Below are positions 38,411 to 48,000 of a stretch of DNA of 64,000 nt, piece after piece. The DNA comes from Microbotryum violaceum (lineage: Eukaryota): contig CDLV01000007.1 in assembly GCA_001244265.2 (NCBI GenBank), positions 1,736,001-1,800,000 of the forward strand, in the 5' to 3' direction. The notes under the pieces were generated by a model. That model was not told where the DNA came from. It saw nothing but the letters and a program-made list of their open reading frames with translations, and did no database searches. The position numbers were made by a program, and so were the translations under genes. Position 1 is the first letter of the stretch, and each line of letters opens with the position of its first letter.

Positions 38411-41400
38411 TGTAAGGCGCGCGCCTTACTACGGGCCACAGGTATTAGAAATAGAGATCGCGCGCACCTAGCTTCTTCAGTTCCCTCCCCATCGGGCTGA
38501 CACCAGAAGCTAGGTGAGTACTGGTGTTCCATATCTCAGCACTCTCGTATATCGGGCTGACACCAGAAGCTAGTTGCAATCCATATAACTTGCACCTGTC
38601 AGCTAGGTCGCCAGTGAGGCTCGAGAGCGATCTCGTGCCTTTCACTTTTTTTTTGACAACGCCGAGTTCATTGGTACCCCGACGATACGGCCTACGTTCA
38701 TCAGGCCCGGCCGTAGTCGAACCATCGAACCCATCGACTAGCTATAAGGCGCGGCTCCACTAGCGCCTCACGACCGCCTCAAGCCACCCTGCGCGCGGCG
38801 CCATGGGCGCCTCTTGACTTTAGTCTTTTGAGTAGTTTATCTTCGCCTGCAATTACACCGTTTGATCCTTTCTGTTCGAACTCGGAATCAGTGAGGCTCG
38901 AGAGCGATCTCGTGCCTTTCACTAGCCCAGAACGGTCGAGGCAAGCCGATTCCACAACCATAGCACGCAGACTCCCAGCCCCAGCACAGCCCAGCCCAGC
39001 ACTGCCCAGCACGCCCAGCAACCCCAGCACGCCCACACACGCACCGCCTTCGCACGCCTCACCAGTCGACATCGCACCGTCCCCACGCACCATGCCCACG
39101 CCCACCGCCCCAGCCACAGCCCCACGTATAAACCCAATGACCCTCCCCAACTCCATAGCACCTCGATGGAGGCCTTGTGCAAATACTTCATGCGCCTGGA
39201 CTTCTACAACCGTCGCATCGCCCGTACACCCATCACAAGCAACTACGATAAGATTGAGGGGGCCGGTATGGGGTTGCAGGTCTTTGCGCTCAAGACCTGG
39301 TTCACCCAGGGCCTGAGCAAGCACCTTGCAAAGCCATATGCTCAGTTCAAGTCGGAACTGATTCGCCGGGCTGTACCAGCGGACTTCGTCGGGACCCAGC
39401 TTGCCGAACTCCACTGTCTACGCCAAGCCCCGGCCACGACATCGATGCCTTTCAGGAATTCTCCGATCAGATGCGCTCACTGCAAATGGAGATTGGCTTC
39501 CAGGTCGTCTCCGGCCAAGAAGTGGCCAAGCTGGTTCTCCTGGGCACCGATCCGGAACTCTGCCGGATCCTCCGCACCCACATGGTCTCGTCGCTGGCTG
39601 GCTGGTCGGACCTCTCGCTCAAGAAGCTTGCCCTCGACGCTCCGGTGGTCCCTACCAGTCCGGAGGCCGCTGAGGTTTTTAGTGACGCACACACGGACCA
39701 ACCTCTCGAGTTCGATTACCAAGTCTTTGAGAGGATTGGTCGCGAGGAATGGAGCTTCATTGCGCAGCGACACCAAGCCATTGCGACCCAGGTCAGTGCG
39801 CTACAACAGTGCCCCACATACTCGCGACCCGCTGCAGCCTCGGCTGCACCCCACGTTGCGACAGCTGCTACCGGCCATTCCCCAATCATGGGTGGCCCCC
39901 GCCCCGTCGCCCGACTCACCGTCGACGAGCGTGCGTACCTGGACCAGAACCACGGATGCTATCGCTGCCGCACTCTCAACGCCGACCACATCTCGCGCAA
40001 CTGCCCCCGCTACTTGTCACCCATGGGAGTGTCCGCCACTCCGTCGACGCCAACGTTGACCGCTCCTGCGCCTCGCCCCGGGCCCCGTATGGTGGTGGCC
40101 ATTCGGACCTTCCAAGAAACTGGCAATTCAACCGTGTTCAACGGCCTCAGCAGCGACTCGGAGGACGACAACGATCCTTTGTACACACCGCATCCCTTTC
40201 CCCCCTTACCCGTCTCCCTAGCCGGCGCTCATGGTACTCTCCTTGCCTCCGCCCTAGTCAATTCGGGATCGCCTCAAACATTTCTCAGTGAGGAGCTTGT
40301 TCAGCGACTGGGTTTGGAACGGCGCGCCCTGGAACAGCATTCAAAGTACACCCTTGCAATGCAAAACCAAGTCCCCACTGTCTTCACCTGCACGCACTTT
40401 GTTCGAGTCCCGCTCAAGCTGGCCAATGGGCTCTGGGCCGCAGGACCGACGTACGCCGAGGTAGCGCCCCTTGGGAAGGACCTTGCAATCATCTTGGGAG
40501 GCAACTTCATCTATTGGCACAAGATGGAGGTCGGCCTCTTCCCTCAGCCACACCTCACCTGCAAAGCCAACCCCATACACGTTATAGACCTGCTGGCGCT
40601 GTCGTCCCAGCCGTGCGCTGCCGCGCGGGTTGCCGCAATTGCTCCGGTTTCTGACGACAAGGAGCAGCTCCGCCTTGCCGCGCTTGACCATCGCCTCCGA
40701 GCGGAGTTTGCCGACCGTTTTCCTGTGGATATCCCGCCTGTACACTCGTACCAATCCCCGGTGCGACACCGTATTGAGCTTGACACTCTGTCCACTGTTG
40801 TCAACCTTCAAGGATACCCCCTCCCAAAGAAGTATTGCGAGGCATGGTACTTACTACTACAGGAACATCTTGCGGCCGGTCGCCTCCGCCCCTCTTGGTC
40901 GGCATACTCGTCACCCTCGTTCATCATCCCAAAGAAGGGCTGCGACGTGGATCCCACGATCGCCCCGCGCTGGGTGAACGACTACCGCGAGCTCAACAAG
41001 CACACCATCAAAGACCGCACGCCTCTGCCCTTGATGGACAACATTCTCTCGACATGCTCCAATGCGCAATTCTGGGCCAAGATTGACATGACCAACTCCT
41101 TCTTTCAGACCAAGATGGCGGAGGAAGACATCCATAAGACGGCCGTGTCCACACCTTGGGGTTTGTACAAATGGACCGTCATGCCCATGGGCCTCTGCAA
41201 TGCCCCTGCCACCCACCAACGACGTGTCAACGAGGCGCTCCAAGGCCTGCTTGGCACCATCTGCTTCGTCTACCTCGACAACATCACCATCTTTGCGGAT
41301 ACACTGGAGGAGCATGAGGCCCGTGTTTGCCAAGTCCTGGATGCACTGCGCCGTGCCAAACTCTATTGCTCGCCAACCAAAACCAACCTTGCCACTGCGG

Positions 41401-45069: not shown

Positions 45070-48000
45070 CCCATAGCAAAAAAGGTGTAAGGCCCGTGCG
45101 CCTCGGCCTTAGGAAGAGGGGACGCGCGCCTGGGCACTCTTAGTCTCTCTCCAGCGACTGATACGAGTGTCCAGGTGAGCACAAGGTGGATCAGAAGGCA
45201 TTGTCATACCAGCGACTGATACGAGTGTCCAGGTGAGCACAAGGTGGATCAGAAGGCATTGTCATACCAGCGACTGATACGAGTGTCCAGTGTCAATTCT
45301 ACATACTTTGGTCCTGTGATCCTTGTCGTCGTCGCTGAGGTGTACACTCCGAAGTCGTCATTGGCGACGTGCTGATCAATCAGGCGCTTCCAGGCTTCCC
45401 GGTAACGGTGTGCCGCTCGATAACCCTTCAAGTTCGGTTTTGTTGCTCCGTCCTTCAGCTCGATTCGGTGTCGGACCGGTGATTCATACGTCGAAACCGG
45501 AGGAATATCCCCCGGGAACCGATCCGCGAACTCGACCCGTAGCTTTGCCTCCCGCCGTCGCAACTCCGTCAACTCCGTTTCCCTTTGCTGGACCCCGTCG
45601 ATGCAGGCAATCACTGCACGCCAGTTGATCCGAGCTTTATCGCTTCGTTTGGCATTCCTCGCCGCGGCTCGCTGGGGGTGGGGTCCGAAGACCGGCGCAA
45701 GAAGGTCGATCTTTACGTCAGGCATGGTCGGATGTGGCACCAGGATCTTGTGTGCCGCGAAGTCGATGGTAACCTTGTGTTTTACAAGGAAGTTGAACCC
45801 CAGTACCACTTCCAAGGGCTCCTGCAGTTTAGCCACCTTCAGAATCGTGTGTCCCGCTTCCCATGCGCCATTCTCGAGCGTGATCGGAATCTTTACAAAC
45901 GAGGTAACATGAAACGCGCGTGCTTGGTCTTTGATTGCAGTTTTGACCAATGTAGGAACAGGGAGACGATGCATGACTAACCCCAGTTTCTCAACCACCT
46001 TATCTGCGATAAAGGAGGAAGAGGCCCCAGAGTCAGCAAGTGCCTGCAACGTCTTTGACTTCGTGTTGTTGTGCAGAGTGATGGGAATGGTGGAGATGAA
46101 CTGAGGGGCGTACTCGTTTTCTTCGTCCGTTGAGATGTCGTCTTCTGAGTTTTCCGCAATTTGATGGAGGGTGTCGTTCTTAGCCGCTTTCGCCGTCTTC
46201 TTTTCGAATTCGGCCCACCCCTCCGGGACATCCGGTGCCTGCTGCCAGTTGGCTGTACAGTCGCTCGCGCGGTGATCCGTGTTGATGCGTCTGCAGTTAA
46301 AGCAACCCTCCTGCTCATCGTCCGAGCTGTCCTCCTTTTCCTCTGGCGCGGATGATGGCGCTGGTTGGGCGGTGGATTTCTTGCCACGCGCCATGTTCGT
46401 CCGTTACCGTTCGTTGTCGTTCGTTCGTTCCGCGGGTGTGTCGCTGGCGCACGTGGCAGTGTGCGTCTTTGACCGGTGTGAAAAAAAAAGTTGCGACGGC
46501 GGGAGGCAAAGCTACGGGTCGAGTTCGCGGATCGGTTCCCGGGGATATTCCTCCGGCTTCGACGTATGAATCACCGGTCCGACACCGAATCGAGCTGAAG
46601 GACGGAGCAACAAAACCGAACTTGAAGGGTTATCGAGCGGCACACTGTTACCGGGAAGCCTGGAAGCGCCTGATTGATCAGCACGTCGCCAATGGCCGCC
46701 TTCGAAAGTCGTCATCAGAGTTCGCGTCCCCGGCGTTTGTCATCCCAAAGAAAGGTATGGATAAGGACCCGTCAATCCAACCACGCATGGTCTGTGACTA
46801 CCGAGTACTCAACGAAGGGACGGTCCGAGATCGCACACCTCTACCACTTCCGGACGAGATTCTGTCGGTCTGCTCAAACGCGCGATTCTGGGGGAAGATC
46901 AACATGACAAACTCCTTCTTCCAAACCAAGATGGCCGAGGAAGACATCCGGAAGACGGCGATTGTGACACCGTGGGGATTGTACGAGTGGACGGTAATGC
47001 CAATGGGACTCTGCAACGCCCCGGCAACGCATCAGCACCGAGTCAACGAGGCACTCGGAGACCTTATCGGGAGCGTGTGTTTCGTGTACCTCGATGACAT
47101 CACAATCTTTGCCGACACCTTGGAGGAACATGAACGACGGGTGCGACTAGTCCTGGAGGCGCTGAGACGGGCGGATCTGTACGTATCGCCGAAGAAGACG
47201 GAACTGTTTGCTGCCGAGTGCTTTTTCCTCGGCCACCAGATCACTCGGGAAGGCATCAAGGTCGATCCTGACAAGGTGGAGCGGATCCAACAGTGGCCGC
47301 GACCAAGGACGGTGAAGCAATTGCGGGGATTCCTAGGTCTGGTGCAGTATCTGCGGAAGTTCATCGACAAGCTTGCGGATTTGACGGCGGTTTTAGTCCC
47401 GCTGACACGGAAAGGGGTGCATGTCGACGAAGGCTGGACGGGAGAGCACGACAAGGCGTTTGAGGCAATCAAGTCCTTGGTGGGCAACCTTCCTTCTCTA
47501 CATCCCATTGACCATTCCGACAAGGGCGACCCATTATGGCTGATGACGGACGCGAGCAATCGGGGAATCGGGGCGGCACTCAGTCAAGGAAAGCAATGGC
47601 AGACGGCCATGCCGGCAGGCTATTGGTCACGACAGTACAACCCAGCGGAAGGCAACTATGCAGCCCACGAGATGGAATTGCTTGCAATTGTGGCCGCCCT
47701 TCATCACTGGCGGGCGGACCTTTTGGGTGTTCGATTCAAGATCCTCACAGACCACCACTCCTTGGCGGGCTTCATGAAGCAACCAAGCCTTTCACGACGA
47801 CAAGCTCGATGGACCGAACGACTGGCCGATTACGACTTCGAGATTGTATATGTACGAGGTCCAGAGAACACAGTGGCTGATGCATTGAGTCGTTACTCTT
47901 TCCCGGAGGAACCCACAGCCGGCCGCCAGGCGAGCGACAATGTCAACGTGCTGGCGGAGGCAACTCTCGATCCTGCCTTCCTTTGCAAACTCAGGGACGG

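Follow-up and report, generated by a model that had tools for sequence, protein, structure and literature searches.

The stretch analysed here, 64,000 nucleotides (nt) of Microbotryum violaceum contig CDLV01000007.1 (assembly GCA_001244265.2, positions 1,736,001 to 1,800,000 of the forward strand; hereafter the window, numbered from its first base), contains two chromoviruses, elements A and B, that each carry a run of nine thymines at the start of their internal region. In element A this T-tract lies exactly where a long terminal repeat (LTR) retrotransposon has its primer-binding site (PBS). The tract is conserved at that position across a clade of related elements, where it is accompanied by covarying base pairing between LTR and leader and by a hairpin in the U5 part of the LTR. 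Elements A and B both match the Pfam families RVT_1, RT_RNaseH, Integrase_H2C2, rve, SH3_Tf2-1 and Chromo, and both show the domain order of chromoviruses, protease, reverse transcriptase (RT), RNase H and integrase followed by a C-terminal chromodomain. As in other chromoviruses, TG..CA-type LTRs and a polypurine tract before the 3' LTR are present in both. The parts of element A are:

38411-38644, forward strand: 5' LTR, TGTAAGG..TTTCA, with TG..CA ends; about 60 nt are duplicated internally in comparison with the 3' LTR
38645 (C) and 38646-38654 (T9), forward strand: spacer C and T-tract, at the PBS position
38743-38921, forward strand: solo LTR of a related family within the leader, starting TATAAGGCGCGG and ending ..CCTTTCA
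38926-43590, forward strand: gag, protease, RT, RNase H, integrase and chromodomain frames, broken by frameshifts
43621-43633, forward strand: polypurine tract, AAGGCGGGGAGAG, adjoining the 3' LTR
43634-43807, forward strand: 3' LTR, starting TGTAAGG and ending TTTCA

The 5' LTR of element A ends in TTTCA at 38644 and is followed by C-T9 (38645-38654), just as a sequence-only reading of this DNA had stated, and then by GACAAC, the latter as part of GACAACGCC. That reading had proposed that the tract is a PBS for a poly(A) primer. A tRNA-primed element would have a TGG-initiated site within about 5 nt of its LTR; there is none within 5 nt of LTR A, where element A has C plus T9, and 28 related loci likewise have C plus T7-9 there. 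The nearest TGG, at 38676, stands 31 nt away from the LTR, and the relatives have nothing equivalent. ARAGORN found no tRNA in the window, and an Rfam search returned only a sub-threshold match to a bacterial small RNA, at 38583-38650. Among the A and T runs of the window, none of at least 8 nt lies in LTR A or LTR B. The absence of a TGG-type site and of an A-run self-primer, both of which the sequence-only reading had reported, is thus borne out.

A self-primer of the Tf1/sushi type would be recognised by a continuous complement of about 10-11 nt between the LTR and a site 0-5 nt after the 5' LTR, which element A does not have. LTR A and its leader share no Watson-Crick complement of at least 8 nt, and the RNAduplex energy of LTR A against the first 60 nt of the leader (-34.2 kcal/mol) was matched by 98 of 300 shuffles.

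The T-tract is conserved across a clade of relatives

Runs of T9 or A9 are over-represented in the window, with four observed against 0.35 expected, a count that one of 100 shuffles reached. The relatives compared are 74 loci on metagenome contigs, retrieved by alignment with the pol genes of A and B; most of the loci that do not carry the tract end before the 5' end of the element, so that the tract is not assessable there. The layout of element A, an LTR ending in ..YTTYCA followed by C and T7-9, recurs in 28 of the 74. The string CAC+T8 is present in 26 loci, always on the pol strand except for a second, inverted copy in L023, and in one of the 26 (L072) it lies far from the pol gene and is probably a chance occurrence. 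Variants are few: T7 in L003 and L008, and TAC+T8 in L054. Among 22 tabulated loci the tract is T8 in 17, T9 in three and T7 in two, and where the distance was measured it lies 1.9-2.7 kb upstream of the pol match.

Two relatives are intact insertions, L002 with 373-nt LTRs that are 100% identical and a target-site duplication (TSD) of CCAAG, and L017 with the 5-bp TSD AAGCA. Both keep the tract and have no normal PBS beside it. The 3' LTRs of L002, L017 and L049 stop at CA without a T-tract. L002 and L017 have no A-run of at least 6 nt in their LTRs, nor do 10 other loci in the stretches that bear an LTR; three of the 12 loci whose runs were tabulated (L003, L005 and L053) have none anywhere. 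No A- or T-run stands at the end of any of the 74 metagenome contigs, and a scan of viral contigs with the pol gene of element A gave no match.

Phylogeny places the tract in a single lineage. In a tree of RT and RNase H with 53 rows, A and B included, all carriers fall with A and B in one clade of 45 rows (Shimodaira-Hasegawa approximate likelihood ratio support 100). Within this clade only L035 and L066, the latter on a long branch, had sufficient upstream sequence and yet no tract. The sister clade of eight rows, four of them assessable, has no carrier. The T-tract at the exact PBS position is therefore a clade-conserved feature, which is the outcome of the test against the RT phylogeny that the sequence-only reading had called for; neither a normal PBS in intact copies nor an unconserved T-run, the sequence observations that would have spoken against its proposal, was found. 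Its description of A and B as unrelated in LTR and leader needs correction: the two are sisters in the RT tree with 62% identity and share their LTR termini, and the leader of A includes the solo LTR at 38743-38921.

One member of the sister clade, L036, has an 11-nt perfect complement (1794-1804 and 2166-2176). Its PBS is set 2 nt behind the LTR, and the partner within the LTR begins 33 nt after a TATATAA box. Judged from its sequence, this combination of complement and TATA spacing is the signature of a Tf1-type self-primer. The carrier clade has an interrupted complement that begins 9-11 nt past the LTR.

Two further observations concern T-runs in the relatives. L001, L010, L016 and L017 have a second T-run (T7-T12) right before the polypurine tract, similar to a retroviral U-box. 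L023 carries, at 410-679, two diverged copies of the LTR end, T8 and leader, arranged head to head about 110 nt apart, a further inversion with its centre close to the tract.

A covarying LTR partner and a hairpin flank the tract

On either side of the T-tract lie features that the sequence-only reading had missed: a leader segment that pairs with the LTR, and a U5 hairpin. We call the LTR segment X and its complement, which starts right after the tract, X'. In element A the parts are:

38587-38600, forward strand: segment P1-up of LTR A, consisting of AACTTG, a 4-nt loop and X = TGTC (38597-38600; in the 3' LTR, 43760-43763), complementary to the leader after the T-tract
38613-38646, forward strand: U5 hairpin, AGTG (38613-38616) with CACT (38643-38646), inner stem GGCTCGAGA/TCTCGTGCC
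38655-38658 (GACA) and 38663-38668 (CGAGTT), forward strand: X' of element A, the partner strand of P1-up

P1-up is preceded by CAATCCATATAA and followed by a G+T-richer stretch. The hairpin adjoins the tract on its upstream side, with AGTG and CACT enclosing a hairpin of 6-9 bp, and the last T of CACT is the first T of the tract. X lies 27-74 nt before the LTR end, and X' is its anchored complement in family after family: the X/X' pairs are AGTTC/GAACT, AGCTC/GAGCT, CTGCTC/GAGCAG, TCTTC/GAAGA, TGTTC/GAACA, ACGTTC/GAACGT, ACGTT(A)/(T)AACGT and ACCTC/GAGGT, with TGTC/GACA in element A. Pairing resumes beyond a small internal loop, giving about 15-18 bp in two or three segments.

Cognate partners match better than non-cognate ones. 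Across 13 family representatives compared by permutation, the anchored X/X' match averages 4.7 nt for cognate and 3.7 nt for non-cognate combinations (p = 0.005). Duplexes between the 22 nt ending at X and the 24 nt after the tract have mean energies of -13.3 kcal/mol in cognate against -6.7 kcal/mol in non-cognate combinations; the cognate mean was not reached in any of 10,000 permutations, and the cognate partner is the best in its own row for nine of the 13 families. Because MAFFT alone misaligned the X segment across families, we used a covariance model, built from 10 sequences, which gave 28 matches; covariation was scored on 26 distinct rows. In the resulting alignment 97.4% of cells are paired, as against 76.9% in shuffles (none of 500 as high) and 32-54% when the partners are slid. 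Changes on both sides are seen at all five pairs of the X-X' helix and at five of the seven hairpin pairs. The minimum-energy fold of element A contains the same three helices (z = -2.2).

The surroundings of X in the LTR are also distinctive. An AAT-type motif (CCAATAC, TCAATCC, TTAATAT or similar) begins 20-23 nt before the end of X; the G+T content rises from 0.42 in the 16 nt before X to 0.67 in the 16 nt after it, and the A content drops from 0.27 to 0.13. The general order of LTR elements set out by Benachenhou et al. (PMC3601003) is signal, poly(A) site and GT-rich area, and by that order the sequence context of X looks like a poly(A) site, that is, the border of R and U5. The end of X lies 72-97 nt past a TATA box in nine of 16 loci examined; of the other seven, three have larger distances, three have no match to the TATA pattern and one has only a nearer motif. 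With L036 as calibration, which puts the transcription start some 30 nt past the TATA box, R would span about 40-65 nt and have X at its end. If poly(A) is indeed added after X, the RNA 3' end ..X-A(n) would be complementary to U8-X' without a break.

A separate observation on the same part of the LTR is that a conserved GTGAGT, which equals the 5' splice-site consensus, stands between X and the U5 hairpin, in the presumed U5, of L010, L011, L012, L014, L016, L039, L053 and L059; L013 has GTAAGT there.

Element B and the transposon nest

Element B is rearranged in the window. Its parts are:

45086-45349, forward strand: 5' LTR, with additional 58-nt tandem copies; the final A of ..CTCCA is missing
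45307-45318, forward strand: LTR B segment TTTGGTCC followed by TGTG, the place homologous to X of the relatives
45350-46480, reverse strand: inverted 5' internal segment, with leader, ATG (46396), zinc knuckle and protease
46481-46489, reverse strand: T9 (A9 on the forward strand), at the tip of the inverted segment
46490 onward, forward strand: forward internal part, with the end of the protease, RT, RNase H, integrase and chromodomain
49469-49480, forward strand: polypurine tract
49481-49688, forward strand: 3' LTR

The sequence 45350-45565 is the reverse complement of 46489-46704. We compared the window with contigs of four public sequencing runs, and all four contain the uninverted arrangement, in which the reverse complement of ..45359 runs into 46695.. 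(or the equivalent joint of 45407 and 46647). All four also depart from the window sequence on both sides of 46307-46316, a 10-nt repeat, and thus the window copy of B lost most of its gag there. Its minus-strand frame encodes only the zinc knuckle and protease, and aligns to the pol frame of A from residue 214. With a gag deletion and an inverted duplication (45350-46704), this copy looks like an aberrant product of reverse transcription. Near 45350-45360 there is a second turnaround, where GAAGTCGTCAT resembles the forward sequence 46697-46708.

The sequence-only reading had placed the T9 of B at the start of the inverted internal region, as A9 at 46481-46489, and this is so; that it occupies the PBS position is an inference for B, because in the window copy the tract adjoins internal B sequence and no LTR. 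In native orientation CACA comes right after the tract and is complementary to the TGTG of LTR B. The leader therefore appears to be B's own, with the proviso that a 4-nt match at a fixed place is only suggestive.

The leader of element A has its own insertion. The segment 38743-38921 is a solo LTR, since it has the characteristic LTR ends and is flanked on both sides by the 5-bp TSD CTAGC (38738-38742 and 38922-38926). Its empty site is found elsewhere, in contigs of two public runs, X1 and X13, that join 38736 to 38921 with six ambiguous letters, ACTAGC, and the leader beginning with T9 is therefore native to element A. The final 34 nt of LTR A recur at 38889-38922 as the end of this solo LTR, the rest of which is unrelated to LTR A; such an identity suggests that U5 hairpins may be exchanged between families. 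The family of the solo LTR is high-copy, with a summed contig depth in run X1 of about 7400 at 38879 as against about 700-1800 across the interior of element A.

Other observations concern the wider locus. The flanks of element A show no matching TSD (CAAAC at 38406-38410, CGTGG at 43808-43812), and other copies of the element in the run contigs have 1-nt insertions at 39107 and 39427. The 5' flank is another repeated element, with an open reading frame at 37567-38415 that has no Pfam match and is about 80% similar to 18117-20035. Internal tandem duplications occur only in the 5' LTRs and not in the 3' LTRs, in A at 38491-38576 (about 60 nt) and in B at 45151-45290 (58-nt units). The region from 14 to 57 kb of the window is a transposon nest flanked by genes for a proteasome ATPase (7496-8767) and for cohesin SCC3 (59754-62854). 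Within the nest, a non-LTR-type RT frame (27019-28560, minus strand) adjoins a copia-type element (28533-31168, RVT_2), together spanning 27019-31168, and at 20412-20456 a stretch of 17 G stands 20 nt after an A8 run.

Candidate modes of priming and comparison with known systems

We tentatively read the T-tract as the 5' half of a two-part PBS, U8-9 followed by an X' of about 20 nt, in a chromovirus clade related to Tf1/sushi elements, and hold this reading with somewhat less than even confidence. More tentatively still, the whole clade may start its minus-strand DNA from its own R end (about 20 nt) and the first eight or so A's of the tail, annealed to U8 and X'. The site would be complementary to the last 20 nt or so of R, ending in X, plus about eight tail A's, and the 3' end of the element's own RNA, or that of a co-packaged copy, would anneal to it. 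The annealed duplex would stack onto the U5 hairpin; the tail would be cut where it leaves the duplex, at the hairpin junction, much as RNase H cuts the 5' self-primer of Tf1; and the new 3'-OH would be extended through C, U5 and R. Among these steps we infer the addition of poly(A) directly after X, the cutting of the tail and the use of tail RNA as primer.

Priming from the RNA 3' end would account for the homopolymer and its length, for the 1-nt spacing from CA and for the large distance between X and the TATA box. It would also account for the tip of element B, where the inverted segment ends exactly at a full A9 followed by 1-2 nt of microhomology: a complete minus strand would end at the complement of the PBS, with U9 protected in the primer duplex, and the end would then snap back.

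Several points weigh against this reading. The X-X' pairing is also predicted by Tf1-type 5' self-priming, which is the ancestral state nearby, as in L036. A normal tail is far longer than eight A's, so that an additional cutting step must be assumed, and the interpretation of the rearrangement in B rests on a single copy. Element A itself pairs only weakly, through 4 bp and a further 6 bp, one of them a wobble. The covariance-model alignment was fitted to the very structure under test, and at E <= 1 the model did not recover element A, L001 or L006.

Tf1-type 5' self-priming is the strongest competitor, less probable in our estimate and still a serious contender. Here the 5' LTR segment ending in X would fold onto X', be cut after X and be extended, with U8 copied first; the U-tract would serve as a spacer, as a stretch whose easy melting aids integrase in trimming the long 3' extension, or as a poly(A) tether for strand transfer. 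Given the perfect 11-nt self-primer of L036 and the literature, this is the parsimonious state: according to the Maxwell review (PMC7175516), self-priming has been proposed for Tcn1, and PMC6317226 applies a 10-bp rule to predict it for Tcn1-clade elements of plants. Both the X-X' helix and the U5 hairpin, moreover, resemble the Tf1 primer-PBS duplex with its U5 inverted-repeat stem. What this explanation leaves unaccounted for is the strict T7-9 homopolymer, kept across about 45% protein identity. The end of X is also 72-97 nt from the TATA box, as against about 45 nt in L036, which would place the paired segment away from the RNA 5' end. The Tf1 primer remains on the cDNA, and integrase trims the extension; in the present elements the DNA end would have at least 10 extra nt past CA. 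Lastly, the tip of B retains the whole A9, though under 5' self-priming U8 would already have been copied and degraded.

An improbable alternative is that any polyadenylated or oligoadenylated RNA primes on U8, with X-X' serving only as a cis-acting "U5-leader stem" that presents the tract, as in avian retroviruses. The tract is the sole unpaired conserved stretch in the PBS slot, and the U5 hairpin and flanking stem do match the U5 inverted-repeat and U5-leader stems of retroviruses. Eight A-U pairs alone, however, would make a weak and unspecific primer site, and it would stay unexplained why X' begins right where the tract stops in all families. It is very improbable that the tract has some other role (a protein-binding site, a packaging signal or an RNA polymerase III-type terminator) while a tRNA or half-tRNA site lies downstream, in element A TGGTACCCCGACG at 38676: the post-tract sequences vary by family and covary with their own LTR and are not shared, as a tRNA site would be. 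Finally, we rejected the idea that the T9 of A is the minus-strand poly(A) tail of a short or long interspersed element fragment with a 34-nt target duplication, a nesting artefact suggested by the position of the tract between two copies of the last 34 nt of LTR A, since the second copy (38889-38922) is the end of the CTAGC-flanked solo LTR, whose empty site is seen in X1 and X13, and 28 unrelated loci share this LTR-C-T8 junction.

Poly(A) priming as put forward in the sequence-only reading is thus partly and indirectly supported: the tract is real, clade-wide and conserved, and X-A(n) would pair with U8-X', while this complementarity is also compatible with a Tf1-type 5' self-primer, against which poly(A) priming is unproven. 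That reading had dismissed self-priming because it considered only an A-run.

The priming of Tcn1-like chromoviruses has been an open question since at least 2010. Novikova et al. 2010 (PMC2864245) describe SM-Tcn1 as lacking both a tRNA PBS and a self-primer, with a stretch from the 5' LTR to gag that is "conservative and thymine-rich" and a mechanism that is "unclear", and the Tcn1 clade as occurring in basidiomycetes, chytrids and non-seed plants. Given that T-rich leader, the tract as such is not new. Our literature search found no poly(A)-primed LTR element, covarying partner, hairpin or clade-wide C-T8 rule, with the limit that the supplementary PBS types of PMC6317226 may bear on novelty. 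The conserved C-T8, the covarying partner and the hairpin offer a concrete, testable structure for Tcn1-like priming, and the finding explains why PBS-based annotation tools miss these elements. The signature of LTR-CA, C, T8 and LTR complement could serve to find intact copies in fungal and non-seed-plant genomes. If true, priming from the RNA 3' end would be a third kind of priming in LTR elements besides tRNA priming and 5' self-priming, in which the site would be copied anew from R in each cycle and replication would be tied to polyadenylation.

Among known systems, Tf1/sushi elements are likewise chromodomain Ty3/gypsy elements without a tRNA PBS, with an LTR segment complementary to a site after the LTR and with an adjacent U5 hairpin. 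The carrier clade differs in having C and T7-9 between the LTR and the complement and in its segmented pairing, and its LTR partner, 72-97 nt from the TATA box, resembles the R/U5 border and not the RNA 5' end. SM-Tcn1 and Tcn1 share the T-rich, PBS-less leader, which is their sole link to A, B and the 28 loci; the accessible portion of PMC2864245 contains no structure, covariation or link to poly(A). As in tRNA-primed LTR elements and retroviruses, the PBS slot is 1 nt after CA, the site is enclosed by a hairpin and a flanking stem, and a polypurine tract precedes the 3' LTR; unlike in those, a TGG is absent, the families have no site in common, and the element's own RNA, not a host tRNA, would be what the site is copied from. 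With target-primed non-LTR elements the clade would have in common that a poly(A) tail base-pairs where cDNA synthesis begins, but there a genomic nick primes and the tail is template, whereas here the tail would prime and the U-tract would be the template site.

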